Of a stretch of 64,000 bases of DNA, positions 1 through 39,554 are shown piece after piece. The notes beneath the pieces were generated by a model. The model made no database searches. It saw nothing but the letters and a program-made list of their open reading frames with translations, and was not told the DNA's origin. Made by a program: the position numbers and the translations under genes. How positions within the stretch are numbered: the first letter of the stretch is position 1; each line of letters begins with the position of its first letter. The stretch lies in NCBI RefSeq assembly GCF_963921235.1, contig NC_086097.1, forward strand, positions 54,934,001-54,998,000. The letters run 5' to 3'. The stretch is from Mobula hypostoma. Taxonomy: Eukaryota.

Positions 1-820
1 TCCCTTTAGCCACAAGGGCCATATCTAACTCCCTCTTAAATATAGCCAATGAACTGGCCTCAACTGTTTCCTGTGGCAGAGAATTCCACAGATTCACCAC
101 TCTCTGTGTGAAGAAGTTTTTCCTAATCTAGGTCCTAAAAGGCTTCCCCTTTATCCTCAAACTGTGACCCCTCGTTCTAGACTTCCCCAACATCGGGAAC
201 AATCTTCCTGCATCTAGCCTTTCCAATTCCTTTAGGATTTTATATGTTTCAATAAGATCCCCCCTCAATCTTCTAAATTCCAAGAAGTATAAGCCTAGTC
301 GATCCAGTCCTTCATCATATGAAAGTCCTGCCATCCCAGGAATCAATCTGGTGAACCTTCTTTGTACTCCCTCTATGGCAAGGATGTCTTTCCTCAGAAT
401 AGGGGACCAAAACTGCACACAATACTCCAGGTGTGGTCTCACCAAGACCTTGTACAACTGCAGTAGTACCTCCCTGCTCCTGTACTCGAATCCTTTTGCT
501 ATGAATGCCAGCATACCATTCGCCTTTTTCACCGCCTGCTGTACCTGCATGCCCACTTTCAATGACTGGTGTATAATGACACCCAGGTCTCGTTGCACCT
601 CCCCTTTTCCTAATCAGCCACCATTCAGATAATAATCTGTTTTCCTGTTTTTGCCACCAAAGTGGATAACCTCACATTTATCCACATTAAATTGCATCTG
701 CCATGAATTTGCCCACTCACCCAACCTATCCAAGTCACCCTACATCCTCTTAGCATCCTCCTCACAGCTAACACTGCCACCCAGATTCGTGTCATCTGCA
801 AATTTGGAGATGCTGCATTC
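1..820 (-). mobile_element. CR1-clade (HER1-like) LINE, RT C-terminal/3' fragment
   Basis: ORF 128..598 has CR1 ORF2 C-terminal motifs (LYKxLVRPHLEYCVQFWSP, RRLRGDLIETYKI, SRTRGHSL). Very similar to the plus-strand copy at about 58070-59125. Confidence 0.93.
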
Positions 821-12300: not shown

Positions 12301-15300
12301 CAAGACCAGAAGATATGGGAGCAGAATTAGGCTATTTGGCCCATTGAATCTGCTCCACAATTTCATCACGGGTGATCCATTTTTCAACTCAGCCCCAGTC
12401 TCCTGCCATCTCCCTGTATCCTGTTCATGCCCTGACTAATAAAGAACCTATCAACCTCTGCCTTAAAAATACATAAAGACTTGGCCTTCAGAGCTGCCTA
12501 TGACAACCCAAATTCCACAGATTCACCATTCTCTAAAAGTAATTCCTCATCTCCGTCCTAAAAGGATGCCCCTCTATCTTGAGGCTGTGCCTTCTGGTCT
12601 TCGACACTCCCACCATAGGAAACAGCCTTTCCACATCCACTCTATCAAGGCCTTTCACCATTCAATAGGTTTCAATTAGGTCACCCCGCATTCTTCTAAA
12701 TTCCAGTGAATACAGGCCCACAGCCATCAAAAGCTCTTCATATGACAAGCTGTTTAATCCTAGAATAATTGTCATGAACTTCTTTTGAACCTGCTCCAGT
12801 TTCAGCGCATTCTTTCTAAGATAAGGGGCCAAAACTGCAAACAATACTCTGTAGGCCTCACCAATGGTTTATAAAGTCTGAACATTACATCCTTGCTTTT
12901 ATATTTTAGTCTTCTTGAAATGAATGCTAACATTGCATTTACCTTCCTCAAAGCAGACTCAACCTGCAAACCTTTAGGGAATCCTGCACAAGGACTCCCA
13001 AATCCCGTTCCGCCTCAGATTTTTGTATTTTCTCTCCATTTAGAAAATAGACAAATCTTACATCTCTTCCATCAAAGTGCATGACTGTACACTTCCACAT
13101 CTACCACTTCTTTGCCCATGCTCCGACTCTAAGTCCTTCTGTAGCCTCCCTATTGCCTCAAAACTATCTGCCCCTGCATCTGTCTTCATATTGTCTCAAA
13201 CTTTACAACAAAGCCATCAACTTCATCATCCAAATTATTAATATATTGTGTAAAAAGAATTGGTCCCAGCAGCCAAACAGAAAAGGCTCCCTTTATTCCC
13301 ACTCTTTGCCACCTCCCAATCAGCGACTGCTTTATCCATGCTAGAATCTTTCCTGTAATACCATAGGCTCATAGCTTATTAAGCAGTCTCATAGGTGGCA
13401 CCTTGTTAAAAACCTTCTGAAAATCCAAGTACACAACATCAACTGATTCTCCTTGATCTATCCTGCTTGTTATTTCTTCGATGAATTCAAACAGATCTGT
13501 CAGGCAAGATAGATAAGATTTTCCCTTGAGGAAACCATGCTGACTGCAGCCTATTTTATCATGTACCTCCAAGTATCCCGAAACCACAATCTTTAACAGT
13601 CGACCCCAATATCTTCCTAACCACTGAGGTCAGACTAACCTGCCTATAATTTCCTTTCTTCTGCCTCTCTCCCTTCTTGAAGAGTGGAGTGACATTTGCA
13701 ATTTTCCTGTTTTCTAGTGATTCTTGAAAGATCATTACTAAGGCCTCCACAATCTCTACAGCAACCTCTTTCAGAACTCTGGGGTGTACACCATCAAGCA
13801 CAGGTGACTTACCTACTTTCAGACAGTTAGGTTTCCTAAGAACCTTCTCTCTAGTAATGATAACTTCACACACTTCATGACTTCTGACACCTGGAACTTC
13901 CACCATACTTCTAGCATCTTCCACAGTGAAGATTGATGCTGTTACGTACCCGTAACTGGGTTGCCAAACCAGCAGAAATGGATCACTCAGTTGGAGTCTG
14001 GATTACTAGATCTAAGAAAGTTTTATTAAAGAAACAAGCAACACAGTAATCGAAAGGATAATAAATGCAACAGTTCAGCAATGATAAACACACGTGCACA
14101 GAATTAAGATAACAGGATCAATCAATCTCTATCGTTGTCTAGGGGTAAATGACCAATTTCAAAGTGACACAAAGTCCAGTTCAATTTAGTTCAGTTCGCA
14201 GTATTCGTTGCCATGGCGATGGACAATGTGGGAGGAAGGAGAGAGAAAACAAGAACAAATGATCATTCAAAACGGCTTCCACACACAGACCTGCGATATT
14301 TCTCACAAGCAGCTTTCGGGCAAGCCCTTTGTGATGTCACCTGAGGTCACCGACTGTGATCCCTCCTCCAGATGCGGTCGATCCTCTGCAGTGAACCTGG
14401 CACCCAAGCAAGGGTGGACACACACCAGGTTCCCGCTGATCGTACCTTTCCACCCTGTGCGTCTCTGGCTTGGTTCCGCAACCAGCCTTCCAAAACGACT
14501 CCCGCCGACTTGCGGGGGGGGGCCACCGCTTCCAGGGTCTCGTTACCTCGTGGTGTCGTGTGTGTCCTGCCTTAGCGAACCTGTCCCTTTTTATCCCCCT
14601 GCTGGGGTATCGCCTGTCCATCACTTCAAACAGTTCAGGGTTCAAAGGGGGAGCCGCTCTAGACAGCTCTCTCTCCCGTCCCTTCATTACACATCTCCAA
14701 ATCGCCTGTCCATCACTTCAACCAGTTCAGAGTTCAAAGGGGGAGCCGCTCCAGACAGCTCTCTCTCCCGTCCCTTCATTACACATCTCCAAATGCTGCT
14801 TCATTGTCTTCCTTATCTCTCTCTCTCCCGAAGACAGGTGGCAGACCAACTGCTGATCACACAGGACAGCTAACATCTATGTGTATTCTTGTCACAATGC
14901 AAAATGCTTAATCAGTTTATCTTCCATTTCCTTGTATCCCATTACACCTATCCAGCATCGTTTTCCAATGGTCCAATATACACTCTTGCCTCTCTTTTAC
15001 ACTTCATGTATTTGAAGAAACTTTTGGTATTGTCTTTAACATTATTAGCTAGCTTACTTTCACATTCTATCTTTATCTTCTCAATGACCTTGAGTTGCCT
15101 TCTGCTGGTATTTTAAAACTTCCCAATCCTCCAATTTCCCACTAATTTTTGCTCCATTATATGCTCTCTCTTTGGCTTTTGTGTTGGGTTTGACTTCCCT
15201 TGTTAGCCATGGTTGTGTTATCTTGCCTTTGGAATACTTCTTCCTCTTCGGGATGTGTATATCCTGTGCCTTCTGAATTGCTTCCAGAAATTCCAGCCAT

Positions 15301-16689: not shown

Positions 16690-18400
16690 TTAAGGAGACA
16701 AGGGTTTTGGCTAGCACTAGTAAACAGCAAGATTGCTGTACCAGAGGGACATTAATACCTGTTGTGTTTTATGTTTCACAGAGTCTTGGTTATCCCTGCC
16801 ATTCCAGATGCAGTGATACAGCCCGCTGACTTCACAAATCACCACCAACATAGGACTGCTGAGTCTTTCAAAGGCAGTGGAGGTGGAGTATGCTTTATGA
16901 TCAACTCCTTGTGGTGTACAAATATGGCAGTTCTGTCCCAGTCCTGTTCACACAACTTGGAACATCTTGGAATCAAGTGTCGTCCATTTTATCTGTTGTG
17001 GGAATTTTCAGCCATCATCTTAATAGCGGTGTATGTCCCACCTCAAGCTCATATCAAACAGGCTCTAGGTGCACTGAGTAACGTAATCAACAGGCGTGAA
17101 ACAGCCAACCCAGATGCCTTCCTCATCATTTGGGGGTATTTTAACTAGGGCAGCTTGAAAAGAACTCTAAATAATTATTACCAACATACCAGTTGTGGAA
17201 CTAGAGGAGCCAACACACTGGACCACTGTTATAGAACCATCAAGAGTGCTTACCGTGCCATCCCACGCTCACATTGTGGAAAGTTTGATCACCTGGCTGT
17301 ACTTCTGCTCCCTGAGAACAGGCAGAGAATAGACAGCAGCACCGGTAGTTGCATTCAAGTCTAGTGATCCAGGACTACACTAGGCCAGGTACGACTTCCA
17401 GAGGGCTATCTTAAGAGCAAAAGGACATTTCTGAATGAGGTTAGAGGTGGAACCGGATGCATGTCAACTCTGGCAGGGTTTAGAGGTCATTACTTTCGAC
17501 AAAGCACGTGGCAATGATGCTTCACTCCCAGATGAGTTCAATACCTTTTATGCTCACTTTGAAAAAGAGAATAAAACTACAGCTATGAGGATCCCTGCAG
17601 CACCCAGTGACCCTGTGATGTCTGCCTTGGAGGCTGATGTCAGATCGTCTTTCAAGAGGGTGAACCCTCGCAAGGTGACAGGCCCTGATGGGGTACCTGG
17701 TAGGTCTCTGAAAACCTGTGCCAACCAACAGGTGGGTGTGTTCAAAGACATTTTCAATCCCTCATTGCTACAGTTGTACATTTTCACCTACTTCAAAAGG
17801 GCAACAATCATACCAGTGCCCAAGAATAACAGGGTGAGCTGCCTTAATGATAATCATCCAGTAATACTCACATCTACGGTGATAAAGTGCTTTGAGAGGT
17901 TGGTTATGACTAGAATGAACTCTTGTCTCAGTAAGAATCTGAACCCACTGCAATTTGCCTACTGCTACAACAGATCTACAGCAGATGTGTTCTCACTGTC
18001 TCTTAATGCTGTCTTGGATCACCTGGAAAACACTAATACTTATGTCAGGATGCTGTTCATTCACTACAGCTCAGCATTTAATACAATCATTCCTACAGGT
18101 CCAAAACTTGGGCCTTTGTACCTTCCTCTGCAACTGGATCCTCTACTTTGGCACTGGAAGACCACAGTCTGGGTGGATCAGAAATAACATCTCCACCTTG
18201 CTGATAATCAACAATGGCACACCTCATGGATGTGTGTTTAGCCCATTGCTCTACTCTCACTACACTTATGATTGCGTGGCTGGACACAGCTCAAATGCCA
18301 TCTATAAATTTGTTGATGACACAACTATAGTCAGAATTTCAGATGGTGATGAATAGACGTACAGGGGCGAATTACTGTATATCAGCTAGGTGATGCAGCA
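16690..18400 (+). mobile_element. Decayed Rex1/Babar-like LINE (EN + RT), 3'-truncated
   Basis: Motifs GGGVCFMIN, AVYVPPQA, TRGANTLDHCY, GPDGVPGR, IIPVPK, KCFERLV, LQFAY, SSAFNTIIP, G.P.GCV.SPLLYS, KFVDDTT. Confidence 0.9.
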
Positions 18401-20053
18401 TCAACCTTCTCGCATCTCGCACTTAGCTCCAACAAAGTTTGTCATATTATTAGAGCACTGTTCACAAACCTGTCCTTGTCTTGCTATAAAGCATCAAAGT
18501 GCATTAACAAAGAAATCTGTATCTAAAAAAGATGCCACTTCAATGTGAACAGCTCGCATAGCTGGACAGGTAAATATGACCCCATACCTCTTCACTCTAC
18601 TCTTCTGGTGCTTCACCTTACAGTAGTCTACTCCTACACCTGTAAATGGAAGTTTATCTGAGGAGACCCTGTCCACAGGTAGATCTGCCATGTGCTAGCA
18701 TCCTGGAGCTACCTGCAACCAGTGATAAACAACACACTTAGGCTGGATTCTTGTTAATGCTGTATGGGCACTGGGAATCCAGTCATTTTGGTACAACCTG
18801 GATAACATATGGTTACCGTGTCCCGCCTCTTCATGTAACGGCCTCAGAATGATGTCTGAGATATGAATATCCTTTGCCAGTATAACAGGATGTTTAAACT
18901 CTACAGGCATGGCTGCCCTACTAAGCTGTCCAGCAACTCTCCAGGCACCATCTTCAAGGACTGGATTGAGCTTGAAAATATGGCTGTTCTTTTTCACACT
19001 TTCTCCACTTTGCAAACTTAAGAATTCATCTGGAAATCTTTCTTTGACAAAACCCAATGATATCCATTTCAGCCTTTCTGAACTCCTCCATTGAGTGCCA
19101 ATCTCACCTGGTCTGATCCTTGGCCTTTTCAATCTCTTTCTCTCTTCCCTCCCCCCCCCGCCCCCAAAAGAATACCCTTGTCGTCCTTCATCCAAGTCAG
19201 ACTGAGGAAATATTTGTTTGCATTCTCTTGTGAGTAAGAAATAACAGCAGGTTCTTAAATCTAAGAATCCAGGCCACTGTCTTTCTCAAACAGATCCAAG
19301 ATGAGAAATGATGGATTATATGTGTTACTGCATCCACCTTCCCTTCAATTTACGTGGCATTCATTGTAACATTCCCCTTGACTTCCAGGTCATCTAGCAG
19401 AAGTTCTCCAGGACAATCGGGATTCACAGGCCATTCACTTTCAGGCTGAAGAAGATACTGAGGCCCTGACACCCATGTCTCACTCCTCAGGAATGCTTTC
19501 ACTTTCAACTGCCTAGATGCCACATCTACTGGATGTTTACATACCTCCGACTGAGATGCTTGTGATACCTTAAGCGTTTCTGAAAGTCTGTTTGTGACGA
19601 AAGTTTGGAACCTGGAAGTTTCATTTTTGATATACTTCAGCACAGAACACAAAACACTGAGTCCTGAAACTGCACGTGCAACTCCTTCCTCCACAATGTG
19701 TTCAAAGGGCTTGCCATTGTAGCAGTGGTGAGCTCCATTTGAGGGATGGAAACTGGCTTCACCAGACCCACCCTAGATTTTCCCATGATAAAAGCACTGT
19801 GCACCTGACAGTGCATGCTGTGCAACAATAGGTAGGTCACTGCTCCATAGCCATCTTTGCTTGCATCTGTAAAATGGTGTAATTGTGCAGCAGTAACTTC
19901 TCCAAACTCCAGAAGTTTCAAACATCTAACAACCTTTAAGTCTTCCAACTGGCAGAGTTCTTTCAGCCAGCTTGTCCACTCATGAGCAACTGATGTTGGT
20001 ATAGTGTCATCCCAGCCAAGCACTTACTTACATAGATCTTGTAGGAAATTCTT

Positions 20054-24390: not shown

Positions 24391-25171
24391 TTTGATTCTG
24401 CACCCTTTTCTTCAGAGTGAATATGATGTCTGCTGGGATGCTTGCCATTGCAGGTCATGCATGAAATATGCTTCCTGCAATCCTTGCTGATGAGTCCTGT
24501 ACACAGATAGCTAAGCAGATCATCATCATCAGGTGCCATGCCCAGTTTGAGCTTTGACTGCCATGGCCCACACACTCCAGTTTTGGGTGAAGTGGATCAA
24601 TTCATTGGTATTCACTTCCAGTTCTCTGGCTGCTGTCTCATTTATCATTTGTCTTTGCCTTCCTTTTGCTTTCTTCCCTTCAACCTTTCCCATAATTACT
24701 GTACATTCTAACTCCTCTTTCCCAGTCACATGTCCAATGAAGTTACGTTGCCTTTTCATGATCTCATACATTATTTCCCTTTTTGTGTTTGCTCTGTTCA
24801 TGACATCCTCGTTAGATATTCGTTTCATCCATGATATTCTTTGCATCCTCCTCAAAAAACATATCTCTACTGCTTCAATTCATTCCCTCATGTTACTAGA
24901 TATTGTCCAACATTCTGATCCATATAACATAACTGGATAAACGTAACATTTCAGTACTCTGAGGCGGGTTGTCATGCCTAGTTTAGTGTTGGTCAGTATA
25001 CTCTTCATTCTTGTAAAGGTGTCTTTTGCCATCCCTGTTCTTCTTTCCATGTCGCACCTGCCATATGATTTCACCCAGCTTCCTAAGTAGCAAAAGTTCT
25101 GTACTTGTTTTATGTCTTCCCCGTTTATTTTCAGCCTACAGATAGGAATCTCCTTCTTTTTGGATATCACC

Positions 25172-26025
25172 TGTTACGAGAATACACATAAAATTAAGAT
25201 GTTTGCTGGCCTGGGCTAGCATCAGTGGCATCAGCAGTTGGTCTGCCACCTGCCCTCAGGGGAAGGAGAGATAAGGAACAATGGAGCAGCGTCTGGAGAT
25301 GTGTAATGAAGGGATGTGGGAGGAAGAGCTGTCTGGAGCGGCTCCCCCCTTTGAACCCTGAACTGTTTGAAGTGATGGACAGGCGATACCCCAGCAGGGG
25401 GATAAAAAGGGGACAGGTTCGCTAAGACAGACACACGCCACCCGAGGTAACGAGACCCTGGAAGCGGTGCGCCTCTCACGAGTGGTGAGAAGTACCGGAC
25501 AACGCACAGGGTGGAAAGGTACGATCAGCGGGAACCCGGTGTGTGTCCGCCCTTGCCTGGGTGCCGGGTTCACTGCAGAGGATCGACCGCATCTGGAGGA
25601 GGGGTCACAGTCGGTGACCTCAGGTGACATCACCAAGGACCCGCCCAAAAGTTGCTCGTGAGAAATCTCGCTGGTCTGTGAGTGAAGCTGTGCTGAATGA
25701 TGAGTTGTTCTCTCTGTCTCTCTTCCCCCACCTTTGTCCATCGCCATGGCAACGATTACTGCGAACTGAACTACAAACTGGACTGAACTTTGAGTCATTT
25801 TGAAATTGGTCATTTACCCCTAGACAACGATAGAGCTTGATTGATGCTGTTATCTTAATTCTGTGTACATGTGTGGTTATCATTGTTGAATTGTTGCATT
25901 TATTATCCTTTCGATTACTGTGTTGCTTGTTTCTTTAATAAAACTTTCTTAGTTCTAGTACTCCAGACTCCAACTGAGTGATCCATTTCTGCTGGTTTGG
26001 CAACCCAGTTACGGGGTACGTAACA
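25172..26025 (+). repeat. 5' LTR (854 bp)
   Basis: TGTTACG...CGTAACA inverted termini. AATAAA near 25937. Direct repeat of 29295-30148. Confidence 0.97.
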
Positions 26026-26029
26026 TAAG

Positions 26030-26047
26030 TGGGGGCTCGTCCGGGAT
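26030..26047 (+). promoter_or_regulatory. Primer binding site, tRNA-Pro
   Basis: TGGGGGCTCGTCCGGGAT, the 18-mer known as the MLV tRNA-Pro PBS, begins 4 nt after the 5' LTR. Confidence 0.93.
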
Positions 26048-26152
26048 TTTGAACGCTAAATTTGGGACGGAGTAAATTGATTGGGTTAAAATTCCCGAAA
26101 GAAAGAAAAGACAAACAGCAGAAATGGAGGTTAATTTATAAAGGCGCCGACC

Positions 26153-29122
26153 TTGGAGGCATTAGAGGATGCCAGGAAATCGGAATTGATAGCTGTGGCA
26201 AAACGGGTGAATCTTGCTAAGGTGAAGTCGACAATGAGGAGAGAGGAGATACACAGAGCTATTGTAGAGCACTATGTATCTAAAGGTGTGTTTCCCCAAG
26301 GTGAGCTGGGGGAGGTGTCTATTGAAAAACCTGCTGGAGACGCGGTACAGGTACAGCTTGAAAAACTGAGACTCGAGCACGAGTTCCGGGTACGGCAGTT
26401 AGAACACGAAGAGAAGCAGTTAGAAAGGCAGGAGAAAGAGAGAGAGTTAGAAAGGCAGGAGAAAGAGAGAGAGTTAGAAAGGCAGGAGAAAGAGAGAGAG
26501 TTAGAAAGGCAGGAGAAAGAGAGAGAGTTAGAAAGGCGGGAGAAAGAGAGAGAGTTAGAAAGGCGGGAGAGAGAGAAAGAGTTAGAAAGGCGAGAGAGAG
26601 AGAAAGAGGTAGAAAGGCAAGAGAGAGAAAGACAGTTGGAGAGAGAAGAGAGAGAGAGGGACAGACAGTTGGAGAGAGAGGAGAAACAGAGGGAAAGGGA
26701 ATTTGAGCTGGAGAAGTTAAAGATAAGGGCCGAGCAGGGGCTCGTGCCGAACCAAGGTGGAGGGTTCCGGGCGACCCAGGAGGTTAGGCTGGTTCCCCCA
26801 TTTGACGATACCGATGTGGATCGGTACTTTCTCCACTTCGAAAAGGTGGCTATAAGTCAGGAATGGCCGAGGGATAAGTGGGTTGTCTTACTTCAGAGTG
26901 TACTGAAAGGGAAGGCCCAACAAGCTTACTCCGCTTTATCCGCGGAAGATGCCCAGAAGTATGAGGTGGTGAAGGAGGCCATCCTCAGGATTTATGAGTT
27001 GGTCCCGGAGGCATACCGGCAGAGGTTCCGGAATGCGAGGAAGCGGTGGGACCGCACGTATTTGGAGTTTGCTCGCGAGATGCAAACATATTGTGAGCGT
27101 TGGTGCGCCTCGAAGGGGGTAGAGGGGGATTATGACAGACTGCTGCAGCTGATTCTGATTGAGCAGTTTAAAGGTTGTGTCCCTGAGGGTATGAGACCCT
27201 ACCTCGATGAGAAAGAGGCAGCCACGTTAGCCGCAACTGCTAAGTTAGCGGATGAGTATGCGTTGACGCATAAAATGAAGGTTGCCCCGAGTAAAGGCTA
27301 CCAGAAGGGTAGTCAGGACGGAGGGGAGAGTCCGCCGGAAAAGTCAGAAAGTAAGCCGGGGACTAGTGAAAAGGATAAGGTAGACCGGGAGCAGTCTGGT
27401 AGGAAGTCTCCTGGGGTCGTCTGTTATAATTGTGGGAAAGTCGGACACTTTGCGTCCAGGTGCTTTGCCCCAAGGAAGGAGACGGGGAAAGGAAAAGCGG
27501 AAATTTGGAATGGCTGTATTGAGCTGTTAAGCGAACCGCTAGGGAAGGACAGGTCTGAAAAAGTCCAGGAAGGGCGCGAGAGGTTTATCTCGGCCGGACT
27601 GGTGTCAGTGAAAAAGAGGTTAAAACCAGTTCCAGTGCGGATCTGGAGAGACACGGGAGCGTGTCAGTCACTAATACTGAAGAGTGTATTAGAGTTTAGC
27701 TCAGAGACCCAGACTGGGGAGGTAGAGGTCAAAGGTGTTGGGGAAGGGACAGAGTCAGTCCCTTTGCACCAGATACATTTACAGAGCAACCTGGTCTCTG
27801 GACTAGTCACGATCGGGGTGAGGTCCGAATTACCAATGAAAGACGTGGAAGTCTTGCTCGGTAATGACATCGCCGGAGGAATCGTGTTCCCAGTCGTGAG
27901 ATTGACGGGTCAGCCTGCCAGCATGGAGGCCCCGCCCGCGATGGTGAATTTGGCTGAAACATTTCTGCCAACCTTGTATGAGACAGGGTGTAGTGAGATA
28001 AGAGGTAGTGAGGGAGCTGGGACGGACGTAGCAGTAGCCAGGAAAGAATTTGTGCAGACGCAGGAGCGAGACGAGGGGCTGATGGTTTTTGCCGAGACCG
28101 CTCTCTCTGACACAGCCTTGACAAGCTATTGCGCGGATGAGGAAGTGCTAAGGAAGAAAGGGAAATCAAGTACAGCATCCGCAGATGAGGAGTGGGGGGT
28201 GGTGCAAAAGAGTTATGGGGATGAGGTTTTTAACATGGCCCACGAGGTACCCCCCGGTGGACATTTTGCGGTGCTGGAGGAAACAGTTGGTGGAATCATG
28301 AAAGAGAGTTACCGGCTGCCCAGGGGGAAAAATGTTATTGATCATGACCGACGCGAACTGAGACGGTCACCGGCTTTTGATATGCTAACAAACCTAGTCG
28401 GTGTTAGCGTGGAAATCAATGAAGCTAGGGGCCCCCTGCTAAGAGAAAAAAACCATTTTGAAAAGATTAGGATGGGATCGGTCAGATGGGAGAAGGCTAT
28501 TGTTTTGGCCAGGTCTACTGATAAGGTCTCTCCCTTAATCCCCGAAGGAGTAATTAAACGACTCGCACCTATGTGTTTGATTGTCCCGAGGAAATGCAAA
28601 GAACTGGGACGTTGGGTTATGTCTGTTACAATAGGGCAGCCAAGTAAACAACACCCATATTTTTCGAGTAATTCAGTGACTAAAGGGCTGATGAACACAG
28701 AGGTGTGTATTGGCAATTTAACACGGCTGTCTGAAGCCAGCTTGATAGTGAACCTTGGAAAAAATGAATTCGGCCACACGAATGTCACTTACCTGGGAAT
28801 TGTGGTGACACAGGGGCAGCTGGCAGTGATGCAAGCTACAGTGCAGGCTATCGCTGACCTCCCAACCCCGACAGACAAGAGGGCCCTCAGAAGGCTTTTG
28901 GAGATGGTGGGGTACTGCAGGAAGTTTTGCAATAACTCTGCGGTCAATACCCGTCCCCCTCCTACTAAGCCCTTGCGAGAGAAAACTGAGTCGGAATGGG
29001 ACGACCCTTGTTATTGTGGTCCGGGACAAAACCAAATGAGAGGTTACATTGGTCGCAATTCATCAGTGTTTTTGGCCACTATGAAGTTTGCTGAGTTGGA
29101 GCCTGGTCTAAGGGATTATTAA
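26153..29122 (+). CDS. Gag-protease polyprotein with degenerate integrase/RT tail (989 codons)
   Basis: Coiled coil, capsid/SCAN-like region (VPPF...YFLHFEKVA...LKGKAQQAY...YELVPEAYRQRFR...LIEQFK), CCHC knuckle CYNCGKVGHFASRC, protease RDTGA and LLGND, IN zinc-finger half AHEVPPGGH, RT remnants (VTYLG, PTPTDKRALRRLLEMVGYCRKF). The annotated start is TTG and the natural ATG is out of frame. Confidence 0.92.
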   Translation: MEALEDARKSELIAVAKRVNLAKVKSTMRREEIHRAIVEHYVSKGVFPQGELGEVSIEKPAGDAVQVQLEKLRLEHEFRVRQLEHEEKQLERQEKERELERQEKERELERQEKERELERQEKERELERREKERELERREREKELERREREKEVERQERERQLEREERERDRQLEREEKQREREFELEKLKIRAEQGLVPNQGGGFRATQEVRLVPPFDDTDVDRYFLHFEKVAISQEWPRDKWVVLLQSVLKGKAQQAYSALSAEDAQKYEVVKEAILRIYELVPEAYRQRFRNARKRWDRTYLEFAREMQTYCERWCASKGVEGDYDRLLQLILIEQFKGCVPEGMRPYLDEKEAATLAATAKLADEYALTHKMKVAPSKGYQKGSQDGGESPPEKSESKPGTSEKDKVDREQSGRKSPGVVCYNCGKVGHFASRCFAPRKETGKGKAEIWNGCIELLSEPLGKDRSEKVQEGRERFISAGLVSVKKRLKPVPVRIWRDTGACQSLILKSVLEFSSETQTGEVEVKGVGEGTESVPLHQIHLQSNLVSGLVTIGVRSELPMKDVEVLLGNDIAGGIVFPVVRLTGQPASMEAPPAMVNLAETFLPTLYETGCSEIRGSEGAGTDVAVARKEFVQTQERDEGLMVFAETALSDTALTSYCADEEVLRKKGKSSTASADEEWGVVQKSYGDEVFNMAHEVPPGGHFAVLEETVGGIMKESYRLPRGKNVIDHDRRELRRSPAFDMLTNLVGVSVEINEARGPLLREKNHFEKIRMGSVRWEKAIVLARSTDKVSPLIPEGVIKRLAPMCLIVPRKCKELGRWVMSVTIGQPSKQHPYFSSNSVTKGLMNTEVCIGNLTRLSEASLIVNLGKNEFGHTNVTYLGIVVTQGQLAVMQATVQAIADLPTPTDKRALRRLLEMVGYCRKFCNNSAVNTRPPPTKPLREKTESEWDDPCYCGPGQNQMRGYIGRNSSVFLATMKFAELEPGLRDY
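26415..26710 (+). repeat. In-frame 27-bp tandem repeat encoding (ERQEKEREL)n coiled coil
   Basis: GAGTTAGAAAGGCAGGAGAAAGAGAGA is repeated several times, then degenerates. Confidence 0.9.
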
Positions 29123-29282
29123 TAACACGTGTAAAAGGAACAGAAAATGTGATGACTGTCTGTCAAGGTGTTGACAGCTTCAAATTCTCTGTATTAGCTA
29201 AATAACTGTTAAAGATGTATATTGTGTATGTATCAGATAATGTAGTCATGTTTGTAATTTTTACCTCCCGGTAAAAATCCTT

Positions 29283-29294
29283 AAAGGGGGGAAG
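29283..29294 (+). promoter_or_regulatory. Polypurine tract
   Basis: AAAGGGGGGAAG immediately 5' of the 3' LTR. Confidence 0.9.
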
Positions 29295-30148
29295 TGTTAC
29301 GAGAATACACATAAAATTAAGATGTTTGCTGGCCTGGGCTAGCACCAGTGGCATCAGCAGTTGGTCTGCCACCTGCCCTCAGGGGAAGGAGAGATAAGGA
29401 ACAATGGAGCAGCGTCTGGAGATGTGTAATGAAGGGATGTGGGAGGAAGAGCTGTCTGGAGCGGCTCCCCCCTTTGAACCCTGAACTGTTTGAAGTGATG
29501 GACAGGCGATACCCCAGCAGGGGGATAAAAAGGGGACAGGTTCGCTAAGACAGACACACGCCACCCGAGGTAACGAGACCCTGGAAGCGGTGCGCCTCTC
29601 ACGAGTGGTGAGAAGTACCGGACAACGCACAGGGTGGAAAGGTACGATCAGCGGGAACCCGGTGTGTGTCCGCCCTTGCCTGGGTGCCGGGTTCACTGCA
29701 GAGGATCGACCGCATCTGGAGGAGGGGTCACAGTCGGTGACCTCAGGTGACATCACCAAGGACCCGCCCAAAAGTTGCTCGTGAGAAATCTCGCTGGTCT
29801 GTGAGTGAAGCTGTGCTGAATGATGAGTTGTTCTCTCTGTCTCTCTTCCCCCACCTTTGTCCATCGCCATGGCAACGATTACTGCGAACTGAACTACAAA
29901 CTGGACTGAACTTTGAGTCATTTTGAAATTGGTCATTTACCCCTAGACAACGATAGAGCTTGATTGATGCTGTTATCTTAATTCTGTGTACATGTGTGGT
30001 TATCATTGTTGAATTGTTGCATTTATTATCCTTTCGATTACTGTGTTGCTTGTTTCTTTAATAAAACTTTCTTAGTTCTAGTACTCCAGACTCCAACTGA
30101 GTGATCCATTTCTGCTGGTTTGGCAACCCAGTTACGGGGTACGTAACA
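29295..30148 (+). repeat. 3' LTR (854 bp)
   Basis: Matches the 5' LTR. The only difference I found is C29345 versus T25222. Confidence 0.97.
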
Positions 30149-30567
30149 CACCATACATTCTGCCTTTTTGCAATTGATTGATAGACCCATTTTCGCACTT
30201 TCTTCAACAACTATATCAATTAAGTTTTGTAGTTCTTCCTCCGTACTTGTAATTAACACAGTGTCATCCGCATATCTAAATTATTGATGTTTTCATCGCC
30301 AACTTTGATTCCCAAGATGTCTCTTATTTTTTGTAATATTGTTTCACTGTACACATTAAACAAATCAGGGGAGAAAACACACCCTTGTCTAACGCCTCTC
30401 TTGAATTTCATAAAGTGACTCACTTCTCCATCTATACCAAGCAGATACCATTTTTTTTTCCACCAAGAGCCCTTTTCTCCAGCCAAGGGTATGTATCCCT
30501 CACAGAACAGACAAACCGATGGACTATTTCTGTTCCATTAGTTCTAGCCTCAGTTAGAGCACAGGAC

Positions 30568-30800
30568 CTTAAGAAATAGGAGCAGAATTAGGCCATTTGG
30601 TCTACCGAGTCTGTTCCATTATTTCATCATGGCTGATCCATTTCTCTCTCAGCCCCAATCTCTTGCCTTCTCCCATATCCCTTCATGCCCTAACTAATCA
30701 AGAATCTATCAACCTCTGCTTTAAATATACCCAATAACGTGGCCTCCACAGCTGCCTGTGGCAATGAATTCCACAGATTTACCAATCTCTGGCCAAAGAA
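30568..30800 (-). mobile_element. CR1 3' end fragment
   Basis: Encodes FFGQRLVNLWNSLPQAAVEA...FKAEVDRFL plus the CR1 3' UTR. Confidence 0.8.
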
Positions 30801-31316: not shown

Positions 31317-32216
31317 TAAGAAAAAGACTGTAGACTTGAAGTGTTTTCACGTATTCAGATTCCCATCGCCAAGACTTAGCTTTTAACAATCATTTCTTAT
31401 TTGTCAACATGCTGGCAACTTCTGATAAGTTCTCAAGGGCGACCCCTAGTGTACCTCAAGGAAATAGAGGCAGTCACCATAGCTCTCAGTCTTGCCTTCA
31501 ACGTTATTTTCAAAAGCCCTCATGAAAGCATGATACTGCACGGCTCTTCATCAAAGATTTGAAAATCTCTTTTAGGCAATGATGAAATACATTGTCGTTG
31601 TACCAATAAGGTTGTTATTTCATTTTGTTCCACATGATATCAATAATACTATTCTAACATCTATTCTCTAAAGAGCAGTTCGATATGACATAGATTCAGA
31701 GTACCTCATTAGTGTAGGCTATAAGTAAACACTCTGAACAATCTCTTGTGGGGGGGGAGGTTATATTCATGTTTCACAGACACTTGAAGAAGAAATGAAT
31801 CAACATTGACTTTCAGCTTGCTCCTGCCCCACCGAACTCATTTCTGCATACCCCCCACCCCGTTCAATCCCTTCCCACCTATGTTCGTGACACTTCTCAC
31901 GTTCTGAATCTTTTCAATGATTTTAAGTTCCCTGGCCCTCACCGCTTTATTTTCACCATGGATGTCCAGTCCCTATATACCTCCATCCCCCACCAGGAAG
32001 GTCTCAAAACTCTCCACTTCTTTTTGGATTCCAGACCTAATCAGTTCCCCTCTACCACCACTCTGCTCCGTCTAGCAGAATTAGTCCTTACTCTAAATAA
32101 TTTCTCCTTTGGCTCCTCCCACTTCCTCCAAACTAAAGGTGTAGCCATGGGCACCCGTATGGGACCCAGCTATGCCTGCCTTTTTGTTGGCTGTGTGGAA
32201 CCGTCCATGTTCCAAG

Positions 32217-33569
32217 GATCTGGTTCGGAGGGGCTGAGGCGTGCAACAAGAACTGGCAGGAGCGGACTGCCAAGGCGAAACAGAAACTGGGACTGTGGGG
32301 AGGGCGCTCCCTGTCGATAACGGGCAAGAACTTGGTCATCAGGTGTGAGGTGCTCTCAGGGCTGCTGTACTTGGTGCAGGTCTGGCCTGTCCCCCACTCT
32401 TACAGCTCGGAAATCACCCGGGCTGTCTTCAGATTCGTCTGGGGATCCAAGATGGAGCGGGTGAGACGGACTGTCATGCACAAGTCCCTGGACAACGGGG
32501 GCAAGAACGTCCCCAATGTCGCCCTCACCCTGATGGCCAGCTTCGTATGTGGCTGCATCAGGTTGTGTGTAGAGCCCAGGTATGTGGGCACCATGTACCA
32601 CTATGTGCCCAGGTTCTACTTGTCGCCCTGGCTACGAAGGACGGGTCTGGCCCCACTCCCGCGCAACGCCCCAGTCAGCTGGTCGTTGCCAGCATACCTG
32701 TCCTACGTAGCAAAGTTCTTCCAGGAGAACGCCTTTGACCACAGGGCCATCAGGCAGTGGTCGGCACGTAGTGTCCTGCAGGCACTGCAGGAGTAGGACG
32801 TGATGGACACAGTGGGGTGGTTCCCTGAGCAGACCGTCCAGTTCATCTGGCAAAATGCCTCATCGCCAGATCTCACCAACAGGCACCAAGACCTCGCCTG
32901 GCTGGCGGTGAGAGGGGCCCTCCCAGTCAGAGCCCTCCTGTACGCCGGGAACGTCGTCTCCGCACCTCACTGCCCACGGGAGGACTGCAATGAGGAGGAG
33001 TCTGTGACCCACCTCTTTGCACACTGCCAGTTCGCATAGAGGGTGTGGAGGAGGATGGACGGGCTAGTGTCACGTTTTATCCCCAGCAGCTGCGTAACAG
33101 AGGACTCTCTGATCTACGGGCTGTTCCCGGGGACGCACATGGAGACCAACATCCGGTGCTGCTGGCAGATCATCAACTCGGTGAAAGACACTCTTTGGTC
33201 GGCCCGAAACTTGATGATCTACCAGCACATGGAGATCTCCGTGGGAGAGTGCTGCCGACTGGCACATTCTCGGCTGCAGGAGTACGTGCTGAGGGACGCA
33301 CTGAAACTTGGTGCAGCCACCGCAAGGGCCCGGTGGGGAAGGACCACAGTATAGGTTTCTCCACCCGTGGGAGTGGGAGGGGTCGGTGGGCGGGGAGTAT
33401 ACCCCTCAACAATGATATGCTGAGCTGAACTACTGGAGTGCCACGTGGGTGGCTATAAATACGGATATGTACTGAGTATAATGGAAACGTATGTAAAGGA
33501 TGAAAAGTTATTGAATGGTTTTTTGTACATAGTTATTTTTGAATAAAGTATATTTTGAAATAAAAAAAA
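32217..33569 (+). mobile_element. Tx1/L1-like LINE 3' fragment nested in the Penelope RT
   Basis: GC-rich. Encodes RAVFRFVWGSKMERVRR, GGKNVPN and a zf-RVT-like CPREDC...ESVTHLFAHC, with in-frame stops. Ends in AATAAA plus an A-rich tail, after which the Penelope RT resumes. Confidence 0.9.
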
Positions 33570-34638: not shown

Positions 34639-36028
34639 AAACGCATCTCTCCCATTTCACGCTCATCTGCTCTCACCTCATCCTCCCGCCACCCCACTAG
34701 GGATAAGGTTCCCCTTGTCCTCACCTACCACCCCACCAGCCTCCGTGTCCAACATACAATTCTCTGTAACTTCCGCCACCTCCAACGGGATCCCACCACC
34801 AAGCACGTCTTTCCCTCCCCCCCAAATTTCTGTTTTCCGCAGGGATCGCTCCCTACACGACTCCCTTATCCATTCGTTTCCCTACCTCCCCATCCCTTCC
34901 CACCGATCTCCCTCCTGGCACTTACCCTTGTAAGCAGAACAAATGCTACACCTGCCCTTACACTTCCTCCCTCACCATCATTCAGGGCCCCAGACAGTCC
35001 TTCTAGGTGAGGAAACACTTCACCTGTGAGTCTGCTGGTGTGATATACTGTGTCCGGTGCTCCCGGTGTGGCCTTCTGTATATTGGTGAGACCCAACGCA
35101 GACTTGGAGACCATTTCGCTGAACACCTACGCTCTGTCCGCCAGAGAAAGCAGGATCTCCCAGTGGCCACATATTTTAATTCCACGTCCCATTCCCATTC
35201 TGATATGTCTATCCACGGCCTCCTCTACTGTCAAGATGAAGCCACACTCAGGTTGGAGGAACAACACCTTATATTCCGTCTGGGTAGCCTCCAACCTGAA
35301 GGCATGAACATTGATTTCTGTAACTTCTGCTAATGTCCCTCCTCCCCTTCTTACCCTATCCCCTATTTTATTTATTTATTCATTTATTATTTCCCCCCTT
35401 TCTTTTTCTCTCTCTCTTTCCCTCTCGCAATCACTCCTTGCCTGCTCTCCATCTTCCTCCGGTGCTCCCCTCCCCTTTTCTTTCTCCCGTGTCTCCAACT
35501 TTGTTTTGCTTTTAGCCAATCAACTTCCCAGCTCTTAGCTTCATTCCTCCTCCACCTGTCTTTGCCTATCATTTTGGATCTCCCCCTCCCCCTCCCACCC
35601 TCCTTCTTTCAAATCTCTTACTATCTCTTCTTTCAGTTAGTCCTGACGAAGGGTCTCAGTCTGAAATGTCGACTGTACCTCTTCCTATAGATGCTGCCTG
35701 ACCTGCTGTGTTCTACCAGCATTTTGTATGTGTGTTGCTTGAATTTCCAGCATCTGCAGATTTTCTCGTGTTGACATTGACTGTTTTTGCGCCCTATCAA
35801 TATAAGAACTCACACCATAGGACTGTCCTGCTGGAGCACTTTTAGCACATGGCTCACTTGAAGCCCTTAGCACATTAACCTTGGCCACCTATGTGCAAAT
35901 TTCTTGCTGCAGCTTAAGCTGCTCCTCTCTTTTCCATAGCTGTTCCTCTTGCTTTTCCAGTGCATGCTTGTCCTTCGATAATTGTTGCTGTGTAATTAAT
36001 GCAGCTAAATCAACCTCTATCTGAATGC

Positions 36029-36646
36029 ATGCAGAGGATGTATTAAATAGGAGTTGGGATGTAATGTTGAAATTGTACAAGGCATTGATGAGGCCAAATT
36101 TGAAGTATTGTGTACAGTTTTGGTCACCGAATTATACGAAAGATGTCAACAAAATAGAAACAGTACAGAGAAGATTTACTAGAATGTTACCTGGGTTTCA
36201 TCACCTAAGATACAGAGAAAGGTTGAACAAGTTGGGTCTTTATTCTTTGGAGTGCAGAAGGTTGAGTGGGGACTTGACAGAGGTATTTAAAATTATGAGG
36301 GGGATAGATAGAGTTGACGTGGATAGGCTTTTTCCATTGAGAGTGGGGGAGATTCAAACAAGAGGACATGAGTTGAGAGTTAAAGGGCAAAAGTTTAGGG
36401 GTAACATGAGGGGGAACTTCTTTATTCAGAGAGTGGTGGCTGTGTGGAACGAGCTTCCAGCAGAAATGGTTGAGGCAGGTTCAATGTTGTCATTTAAAGT
36501 TAAATTGGACAGCTATATGGGCAGGAAAGGAATGGAGGGTTATGGGCTGAGTGCAGGTCGGTGGGACTAGGTGAGAGTAAGAGTTTGGCACGGACTAGAA
36601 GGGCCGAGATGGCCTGTTTCCGTGCTGTAATTGTTATATGGTTATA
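36029..36646 (+). mobile_element. CR1 3' fragment
   Basis: ORF 36025..36570 (LYKALMRPNLKYCVQFWSP...TRGHELRV...FFIQRVVAVWN) and a short GTTATATG repeat tail. Confidence 0.9.
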
Positions 36647-36715
36647 CGGAAGATGCTCTGCCTCCAGTAGAAATTCGAGCACTGACATGTTGCTCAGGTT
36701 GACAGCATCCTGTGG

Positions 36716-39232
36716 GACCTCTGCAATAGAGGAGCAGATTGGGAGGCAGATCTTGGAAAGGTGCAAAAATAACAGGGTTGTTATCATGGGTGACTTTAAC
36801 TTCCCTAATATTGATTGGCACCTTATTAGTTCCAATGGTTTAGACGGGGCAGCGTTTGTTAAGTGTGTCCAGGACGGATTCCTGTCACAGTATGTTGACA
36901 GGCCAACTAGGGGGAATGCCATACTAGATCTAGTATTAGGTAACGAACCGGGTCAGGTCACAGATCTCTCAGTGGGTGAGCATCTGGGGGACAGTGACCA
37001 CCGCTCCCTGGCCTTTAGCATTATCATGGAAAAGGATAGAATCAGAGAGGACAGGAAAATTTTTAATTGGGGAAGGGCAAATTATAAGGCTATAAGGCTA
37101 TAAGGCTAGAACTTGCAGGTGTGAATTGGGATATTTTTGCAGGGAAATGTACTATGAACACATTTTCGATGTTTAGAGATCTCTTGCAGGATGTTAGGGA
37201 TAAATTTGTCCCGGTGAGGAAGATAAAGAATGGTAGGGTGAAGGAACCATGGGTGACAAGTGAGGTGGTAAATCTAGTCAGGTGGAAGAAGGCAGCATAC
37301 ATGAAGTTTAGGAAGCAAGGATCAGATGGGTCTATTGAGGAATATAGGGAAGCAAGAAAGGAGCTTAAGAAGGGGCTGAGGAGAGCAAGAAAGGAGCATG
37401 AGAAGGCCTTGGTGAGTAGGATAAAGGAAAACCCCAAGGCATTCTTCAATTATTTGAAGAACAAAAGGATGACAGGTGTGAAGATAGGACTGATTAGAGA
37501 TAAAGGTGGGAAGATGTGCCTGGAGGCTGTGGAAGTGAGCGAGGTCCTCAATGAATACTTCTCTTCGGTATTCACCAATGAGAGGGAACTTGATGATGGT
37601 GAGGACAATATGAATGAGATTGATGTTCTGGAGCATGTTGATATTAAGGGAGAGGAGGTGTTGGAGTTGTTAAAATACATTAGGACAGGTAAGTCCCCAG
37701 GACCTGACACAATATTCCCCAGGATGCTCCACGAGGCGAGGGAAAAGATTGATGAGCCTCTGGCTAGGATCTTTATGTCCTCGTTGTCCACGGGAATGGT
37801 ACCAGAGGATTGGAGGGAGGCGAATGTTGTCCACTTGTTCATAAAAGGTAATAGGGATAGTCTGGGGAATTATAGACCAGTGAGTATTACATGTATAGTG
37901 GGAAAGCTGTTGGAATAGATTCTTAGAGATAGAATCTATGGACATTTAGAGAATCATGGTCTGATCGGGGACAGTCAGCATGGCTTTGTGAAGGGCAGAT
38001 CGTGTCTAACAAGCCTGATAGAGTTCTTTGAGGAGGTGACCAGGCATATAGATGAGGCTAGTGCAGTGGATATGATCTACATGGAGTTTAGTAAGGCATT
38101 TGACAAGGTTCCACATGGTAGGCTAATTCAGAAAGTCAGAGAGCATGGGATCCAGGGAAGTTTGGCCAGGTGGATTCAGAATTGGCTTTCCTGCAGAAAG
38201 CAGAGGGTGGTGGTGGAGGGAGTACATTCGGATTGGAGGGTTGTGACTTGTGGTGTCCCACAAGGATCAGGTCTGGGACCTCTACTTTTCCTGATTTTTA
38301 TTAACGACCTAGATGTGGTGGTAGAAGGGTGGGTTGGCAAGTCTGCAGACAACACAGAGGTTGGTGGTGTTGTGGATAGTGTAGAGGATTGTCGAAGATT
38401 GCAGACAGACATTGATAGGATGCAGAAGTGGCCTGAGAAGTGGCACATGGAGTTCAACCCGGAGAAGTGTGAGGTGGTACACTTTGGAAGGACAAACTCC
38501 AAGGCAGAGTGCAAAGTAAATGGCAGGATACTTGGTAGTGTGGAGGAGCAGAGCGATCTGGGGGTACATGTCCACAGATCCCTGAAAGTTGCCTCACAGG
38601 TAGATAGGATAGTGAAGAAAGCTTACGGGGTGTTAGCTTTCATAAGTCGAGGGATAGAGTTGAAGAGTCACGAGGTATGATGCAACTCTATAAAACTCTG
38701 GTGAGGCCACACTTAGAGTACTGTGTCCAGTTCTGGTCCACTATAGGAAGGATGTGGAAGCATTGGAAAGGGTACAGAGGAGATTTACCAGGATGGTGCC
38801 TGGTTTGGAGAGTATACATTACGATCAGAGATTAAGGGAGCTAAAGCTTTACTCTTTGGAGAGAAGGAGGATGACATGAGACATGATAGAGGTATACAAG
38901 ATATTAAGAGGAATAGAGTGGACAGCCAGCACCTCTTCCCCAGGGCACCACTGCTCAATACAAAAGGACATGATTTTAAGGTAAGGGATGGGAAGTTCAA
39001 GGGGGATATTAGAGGAAGGTTTTTTACTCAGAGAGTGATTGGTGCGTGGAATGCACTGCCTGAGTCAGTGGTGGAGGCAGATACACTAGTGAAATTTAAG
39101 AGACTACTAGACAGGTATATGGAGGAATTTAAGGTGGGGGGGGTGTTATATGGGAGGCAGGGTTTAAGGGTCGGCACAACATTGTGGGCCAAAGGGCCTG
39201 TACTGTGCTGTACTATTCTATGTTCTATATGT
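36716..39232 (+). mobile_element. CR1 LINE, 5'-truncated in the endonuclease, most of ORF2 present with stops and frameshifts
   Basis: MGDFNFPNIDW, PTRGNAILDLVL, SDH, KSPGPD, WREANV, KAFDKVPH, GVPQGS.LGPLLF. TTCTATGTTCTATATG tail. Confidence 0.93.
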
Positions 39233-39554
39233 GCGTAGTCAAAACTAGCCTTGGAATTTGACAAACATCGTCTGTTGGAAGGTGAGACATGTATTCACTT
39301 GTTGAAGCAGTATCACCTTCAATGGAACATTTTTGGTTAACCATTGTTTCATATCCTCTGTGAGTGCACTACTAACTCATCCAATGTTTGAAAAACACTG
39401 GTTCTGTTTTTCTTGCTCGACCTTGGGAAGTAATAAGATCAACATGTAATGTTACTTAGCAACAGCTTCACAGAGACTAGTCAAGTCCTCAAGATGAGAT
39501 TGCACTTGTAAGTCATTTCCCTTATTTCCCATAAGATCCATGATTGATGGTATT

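Follow-up and report, generated by a model that had tools for sequence, protein, structure and literature searches.

An open frame is usually taken as proof that the protein it encodes is important, and a long terminal repeat (LTR) retrotransposon in the ray Mobula hypostoma raises the question of what else may hold a frame open. The element, of the Gmr1 type and ~5 kb in total (25172-30148), lies in a 64,000-nucleotide stretch of contig NC_086097.1 (assembly GCF_963921235.1, positions 54,934,001 to 54,998,000), which was analyzed as a whole and is called the window here. It carries a single open reading frame (ORF) that runs through Gag, an aspartic protease (PR), and scraps of pol, and the first-pass annotation of the window, made from the letters alone, had described it correctly in this respect (995 codons, 26135-29122). 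Within this one ORF, Gag-PR and the tail behind it carry contrasting signatures, with the tail apparently selected for translatability alone. The explanation that we consider fairly probable is that the element belongs to a Gag-PR family that has no working pol enzymes beyond the protease, borrows them from a helper, and keeps its tail open since translation of its RNA has to continue almost as far as the former pol stop.

The tail of ~400 codons consists of collinear scraps of integrase (IN), reverse transcriptase (RT), and RNase H (RH), all in the ancestral pol frame and all with their catalytic residues lost. It was resolved against the intact Gmr1-type proteins P0029 and P0022 and against two helper-type fragments from Mobula, P0023 (Gag-PR-IN, in which HHCC and the initial aspartate of the core are present) and P0184 (RT-RH with YIDD and the RNase H motifs). 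The first-pass annotation had seen an IN zinc finger that keeps its two histidines without a CxxC or a DDE core; these are H703 and H710, and the core is deleted in a ~290-column gap with its junction near 28351/28352. It had also taken the RT active-site position to be degenerate, and CIGN (residues 858-861, 28706-28717) indeed aligns to YIDD, with an 18-aa loss beyond. The RT thumb scrap also matches Ty3 RT (E 1.4e-4). The claim that no RNase H is present needs a correction, as an in-frame C-terminal scrap occupies residues 960-995 and ends at the stop at 29122, which is common to 11 family proteins. Alignment of the remnants places integrase upstream of RT-RNase H, in agreement with the Gmr1-type order proposed earlier. 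A Pfam search with residues 590-995 found nothing, so that the suggested profile check for rve, RVT_1, and RNase H came out negative on the tail, whereas matches to rve, RVT_1, RT_RNaseH, and Integrase_H2C2 are all obtained with P0029, an autonomous relative; the intact IN HHCC/DDE, RT YxDD, and RNase H of an autonomous element are all missing here. An intact RT or IN hidden in another frame can be eliminated because stops interrupt the two alternative frames of the tail 28 and 32 times and every significant tail match in tblastn with seven relatives falls in the ORF frame. Fixed frame breaks are confined to the final ~20 codons ahead of the ancestral stop. When modeled, the IN pre-finger piece reaches a predicted local distance difference test (pLDDT) score of 70-89 and the thumb 54-74, with most of the tail below 50. 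The large IN and RT deletions lie between short repeats that share a codon phase, a pattern expected of template switching during reverse transcription.

This arrangement is not peculiar to the window copy. RefSeq proteins of M. hypostoma match it at up to 98%, and relatives are found in M. birostris as well. The IN-deletion junction is present in 20 of the 32 Mobula proteins examined, in both species; 11 of the 20 reach the same stop and nine end early, and the remaining 12 proteins end before the junction or are of helper type. The recurrence of deletion junctions that the first-pass annotation proposed to look for is thereby established at the protein level. Its view that the pol decay is older than this insertion and that the lineage propagates also stands, with the junctions recurring across many proteins of the two species in lightly to heavily decayed form. 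A multicopy family with a Gag-PR ORF and without RT and IN is what we find, with the start of the window copy departing from it. Mobula does have helper-type fragments of RT and integrase (P0184, P0023); a search for proteins longer than 1742 aa returned just an oyster protein, and no full-length Mobula helper was found in the protein searches, which is weak evidence on this point.

The 17 tails, in a midpoint-rooted tree where P0028 has a long branch, form a ladder along which M. hypostoma and M. birostris are intermixed; support is good for 5 of the 14 inner branches. Its order is P0028 (M. birostris), P0179/P0180 (M. hypostoma), P0181 and P0178 (M. birostris), P0005, P0004, and finally ten young tails grouped together, the window copy among them. 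The tail of P0028 reads YIGD and still has the 18-aa segment, and the steps of the ladder add frame-keeping indels of +1, -4, -5, -6, -7, -9, and -18 residues. Relative to helper-type proteins, at least 12 tail indel events, read from proteins and not from DNA, all preserve the ancestral frame. The tail is also present in contigs of two organisms: the RH junction and the stop are bridged by contig X7 record 24 and the RT junction by X9 record 31 (second organism), and two contigs across the IN junction were left uncounted with fewer than 31 letters on one side. Among the sequencing runs, X7 may be RNA and X17 is probably DNA. Two length variants of the ORF occur among the contigs and keep the frame, a multicopy form that lacks 42 nt (28089-28135) and one that is 18 nt longer (28544); of the 35 small-indel rows, the 12 with the best support are all in the LTR.

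The two parts of the ORF differ in how they have changed. Conserved columns lost only in the window lineage versus only in P0023 number 1 versus 4 for capsid, zinc knuckle, and protease together, and 18 versus 1 for the IN scrap. Among tail columns conserved in helper-type proteins, 67 of 151 (44%) have changed, and the mean BLOSUM62 score of the tail differences (-0.44, n = 132) sits beside the neutral single-step expectation of -0.40, compared with +0.21 for intact-versus-intact comparisons (p 0.003) and +0.20 for Gag-PR (p 0.02). Common variants in the contigs are 8 synonymous to 6 nonsynonymous in Gag-PR (p 0.024 against the 29% expected) and 5 to 15 in the tail with no stop, in a test that covers 34 ORF rows among the best 40 of 327 rows, some of them near indels. 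About 10 stops are expected in the 403 tail codons (5-11 over the range of assumptions tried) and none is present, with a chance of ~4e-5; the odds of indels that keep the frame come to (1/3)^8 to (1/3)^12. Protein-level comparison and a partial variant table thus support purifying selection on Gag-PR and neutral drift of the tail amino acids. Because the changes in the tail are neutral-like yet without stops, selection appears to act on the open frame and not on the tail protein. The first-pass annotation had offered a structural extension or escape from nonsense-mediated decay (NMD) as reasons for an open tail; these results favor the latter, or continued translation more generally, over the former. 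It had also held that a ratio of nonsynonymous to synonymous rates near 1 in the tail would tell against its reading, and the amino acids do behave in this way, but the expected stops are absent.

Several observations weigh against frame-only selection. P0004 and P0005 both exit the frame at residue 893, and they are successive branches and not a clade; if the form that exits at residue 893 did propagate, the element can do without its final ~100 codons. P0006 and P0186 exit near residue 770, and both sites lie at single-base runs. Such paired exits reflect either recurrent slippage or propagated truncated forms. The contrast between Gag-PR and tail variants reaches only p 0.08 (Fisher), and the indel odds given above are overstated because the large junctions sit at short codon-phase repeats, which may favor in-frame deletion, and were read from proteins. 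The RT-thumb scrap has lost fewer conserved sites (22/64, 34%) than the IN and RH scraps (45/87, 52%; p 0.046), which hints at residual constraint or at exchange with the helper. RefSeq proteins are chosen for open frames, and even so nine of the 20 junction-bearing proteins end early. The need for an open tail is also not universal, as the Gag-only families Bik-1/2 of zebrafish (PMC12067270) and Quinta of wheat (PMC11302176) spread without one, going by the available text of these reports.

How could translation be the selected property? In the helper-borrowing scheme, the family would make or contribute Gag-PR particles for its own RNA and would take IN, RT, and RNase H from an intact helper, for which P0184 (RT-RH) and P0023 (Gag-PR-IN) represent candidates. 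Selection would then fall on translation through the tail: master copies with a tail stop or frameshift would lose RNA and leave no descendants, and in-frame deletions would be free and would accumulate. As the cause, we lean modestly toward mRNA surveillance by NMD over translation-coupled packaging, although translation-coupled packaging or RNA remodeling, both considered for defective viral RNAs in the available text of PMC4395149 and PMC8255065, would fit equally in kind. The preference comes from the layout of Gmr1-type elements, which translate one ORF to near the polypurine tract (PPT), so an early stop lengthens the untranslated tail; a stop after the protease would put 2149 nt instead of 938 nt between stop codon and AATAAA. 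A long untranslated tail is a trigger of UPF1-dependent decay. Transcripts with long 3' untranslated regions are more prone to NMD, and in Rous sarcoma virus escape depends on a stability element (PMC5031192, available text); a single-ORF element would presumably never have needed such a device. That frame breaks just before the old stop are tolerated matches the prediction of surveillance. Avoidance of a frameshift-made C-terminal degron as the sole cause was rejected, as it leaves the absence of plain stops unexplained. More tentatively, and at somewhat less than an even chance, host RNA surveillance may impose a rule on ray Gmr1-type elements under which any parasitic derivative has to sustain translation almost as far as the 3' LTR, and which would have preserved 400 meaningless codons since before the two Mobula species split.

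The tail protein might instead be what is kept: an IN N-terminal piece or RT thumb, released or on Gag-PR, could recruit, scaffold, or inhibit the helper enzymes, much as, in the available account (PMC9610340), a SARS-CoV-2 defective RNA encodes a fusion protein by which its helper is attenuated. The smaller loss of conserved sites in the thumb agrees with this, as do the models of the IN pre-finger piece and thumb at moderate confidence, though these are driven by intact homologues in the alignment. However, the substitutions in the tail are as radical as neutral ones, the IN scrap has shed conserved columns that its counterpart kept, repeated deletions cut helices and motifs, and both the 5:15 variant ratio and the low pLDDT of most of the tail point the same way, so that we regard a protein role as unlikely. 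Slightly more doubtful still is an open frame that arose as a by-product of template switching between in-phase repeats, of a short lineage, and of annotation that shows only open copies. The codon-phase repeats that flank the big junctions are what it would predict, and all family proteins come from ORF-based annotation, with nine of 20 ending early. It does not account for the change of 44% of the helper-conserved tail columns without a stop where ~10 were expected, and the small indels (+1 to -18 residues) map to internal branches as shared derived states. The window copy, moreover, came from raw DNA and not from annotation, and no common stop occurs in the contigs among the best 40 of 327 variant rows.

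Retention of the tail for RNA signals or spacing (packaging, dimerization, strand transfer), with the frame incidental, is improbable. Coding-region cis-elements are common in RNA viruses according to the available text of PMC4395149, and the tail stands at a summed contig depth, which is not a copy number, similar to that of gag in all four runs; but signals need no frame and cannot explain the absent stops, and the tail variants show no visible protection of synonymous sites (5 of 20, as under neutrality). Such signals may explain why the tail is not deleted outright and would in that case add to the translation-based explanation. We consider it very improbable that the ORF represents a Gag gene domesticated by the host, in the manner of Bik-1 or the SIRH/SCAN genes, and maintained by host selection. 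Gag-PR is constrained, RefSeq gives several copies isoforms or places in host gene models, and young Gag-only elements can serve zebrafish development (PMC12067270, available text), all of which domestication would lead one to expect. In contrast, a multicopy and ladder-like family, near-identical LTRs with a target-site duplication (TSD) inside a long interspersed nuclear element (LINE), and a broken start indicate selection on transposition, and this is no single fixed locus without transposition hallmarks.

The coordinates of the element are collected in Table 1. The near identity of the LTRs noted earlier was confirmed, with 853 of 854 positions identical and the sole mismatch at 25222. 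Because the LTRs differ at one base, we read 25172-30148 as a recent insertion; its age from this mismatch would be 0.6-2.3 My, with a very wide error, if substitution rates between 1e-9 and 2.5e-10 per site per year are assumed. The primer-binding site (PBS) is complementary to what we take to be the 3' end of tRNA-Pro. The insertion splits the RT-coding sequence of a LINE on the minus strand, presumably RTE-like by its motifs, with flanks at 24880-25167 and 30153-30580. The RT sequence of this LINE is decayed and very abundant in the sequencing runs compared, and the uninterrupted flank (empty site) is present as loose contig ends in runs X1 and X9. From the LTR end, 139 contigs of run X1 exit into unlike flanks, a count that includes solo LTRs, 5' LTRs, and related families; contig depths were not taken as copy numbers.

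The protease and Gag halves of the claim that both are intact fared differently. The protease has its DTGA and a well-modeled fold (pLDDT 88-97, with retroviral aspartic proteases as the top fold matches). Gag is not intact in this copy because the family ATG is out of frame and the next ATG drops 38 residues. The ATG at 26124 matches the family N-terminus and stops after 5 codons, the in-frame ATG at 26234 lies 38 residues inside the family protein, and the start that had been placed at 26153 is a TTG, which is not a eukaryotic start. The full N-terminus ME.EEF[IL]K begins 13 of the 32 Mobula proteins examined. The sequencing contigs compared stop short of the start-codon region, and the break is a mutation or an assembly error. 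With its start broken, the window copy is probably a passenger at best. Pfam on the whole ORF finds SCAN and zf-CCHC only, and identity to P0029 and P0022 is 48-51% in the capsid and 44-49% in the protease. Folding from the single sequence was uninformative (pLDDT 30). The length of the Gag repeat varies among family proteins by ~70 residues from shortest to longest, always in frame.

Table 1. Features of the Mobula hypostoma element, in window coordinates.
Feature	Position	Strand	Remark
Left TSD, CACC	25168..25171	+	
5' LTR, 854 bp, TG...CA ends	25172..26025	+	853/854 identical to 3' LTR
TATA-like GATAAAA at 25401 and AATAAA at 25937	within 5' LTR	+	
PBS, 18 nt	26030..26047	+	window's only match
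Family start codon, out of frame here	26124..26141	+	acts as 5-codon upstream ORF
Single open frame, 995 codons stop to stop	26135..29122	+	first in-frame ATG 26234
27-bp tandem repeat encoding charged (E/R/K) low-complexity Gag stretch	26355..26715	+	
Capsid region	26765..27274	+	SCAN domain residues 291-380, E 1.4e-12 (Pfam)
Nucleocapsid zinc knuckle, zf-CCHC	27419..27463	+	Pfam E 4.7e-6
Aspartic protease	27572..27889	+	DTGA at 27650-27661 (residues 506-509)
IN N-terminal scrap	27944..28351	+	H703 and H710 kept; ends just before CxxC
IN C-terminal end and IN-RT linker	28352..28660	+	up to RT N-terminal QHPY motif
RT scrap, thumb kept	28661..29011	+	fingers and most of palm gone (~128 aa)
RNase H C-terminal scrap, in frame	29012..29122	+	after ~88-aa deletion; YTDH to YIGR (residues 960-995)
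Last ~20 ancestral RNase H codons, other frames, behind stop	29123..29174	+	versus P0184, P0183
PPT	29283..29294	+	
3' LTR	29295..30148	+	AATAAA at 30060
Right TSD, CACC	30149..30152	+	

Elsewhere in the 64-kb window, no second gag-pol copy was found, and no tRNA gene was found in the window. A solo LTR of a related family lies at 13940-14896 (-), ~86-88% identical to the LTR of the element and with its own 4-bp duplication ATGC. Further decayed retroelement ORFs are located at 36025-39238 (+), 128-613 (-), 17435-18187 (+), 18695-19285 (-), and 31799-32796; by their motifs, we take these to be CR1/L2-like LINE pieces, a BEL/Pao-like integrase region, Penelope- or DIRS-like RT, and Tx1-like sequence. 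Several RefSeq isoforms under host names (MACC1, UBE2G2, PPM1L, TRIC-A, HSPBAP1; P0002, P0015, P0020, P0183, P0184) are wholly or largely family or helper-type products, and they represent either chimeric transcripts or misannotation. A warning for annotation follows, in that the family's "uncharacterized" ray proteins of ~1000 aa and such host-named isoforms are transposon products.

Among known systems, the closest are the Gmr1-like Ty3/gypsy elements (Metaviridae), in which a SCAN-type capsid is followed by PR, IN, and RT-RH as far as the available text describes them (bioRxiv 2025.03.03.638093, PMC8220671). Their hallmarks are found here, namely, TG..CA LTRs, TSD, PBS, and PPT, a SCAN-type capsid before the protease, and IN before RT-RNase H. 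Unlike them, the Mobula element is 5 kb long, has only dead scraps of IN, RT, and RH, and cannot be autonomous. From its sequence, we regard the family as a nonautonomous derivative of the Gmr1-like group, an assignment by structure and domain order, as the RT core itself is deleted. The wheat families RLG_Sabrina_SA (GAG-Pro) and RLG_Quinta (GAG + DUF1) are likewise high-copy, without RT and IN, and proposed to be cross-mobilized (PMC9744471, PMC11302176, available text), and Sabrina_SA resembles the Mobula family in retaining Gag and protease. By these accounts, the helper of the wheat elements is known by shared PBS and LTR ends, whereas the candidate helper in Mobula is known from protein fragments alone, and an in-frame pol remnant, which the Mobula family has, is not described in their available text for wheat. 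The zebrafish BHIKHARI families Bik-1 and Bik-2 are young nonautonomous LTR families that lack pol and whose Gag is intact (PMC12067270, available text). The same portion presents them, unlike the Mobula family, as retrovirus-derived, without protease or pol scraps, and with a host function shown.

The nearest parallel in behavior is viral. ORF-dependent defective interfering RNAs were reportedly described by van der Most in 1995. Defective RNAs of mouse hepatitis virus (MHV) need translation and not its product, according to the available text of PMC4395149 and PMC8255065. Like these RNAs, the Mobula family would be a helper-dependent deletion derivative (dependence being judged from the loss of its enzymes) with fragments fused in frame; unlike them, as cytoplasmic viruses tested in culture in those same partial accounts, it is a germ-line retrotransposon with an evolutionary signature only. 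The signature agrees in that the sequence drifts with its frame open, but the thumb scrap is slightly more conserved. A literature search, with most subscription papers and Repbase/Dfam outside its scope, found no account of this Mobula family or of frame-only selection on a retrotransposon pol remnant. The many copies and the graded series in two species make an effect of NMD or packaging on the spread of a defective retrotransposon directly testable. If our explanation is true, the family is a retrotransposon counterpart to the "translation, not product" law of defective interfering RNAs and a natural gauge of frame-only selection in the vertebrate germ line. Semiautonomous Gag-protease elements, as in wheat Sabrina_SA, and frame-only selection, as in viral defective RNAs, are already known; the new trait is a pol remnant in a retrotransposon that drifts neutrally yet stays open.

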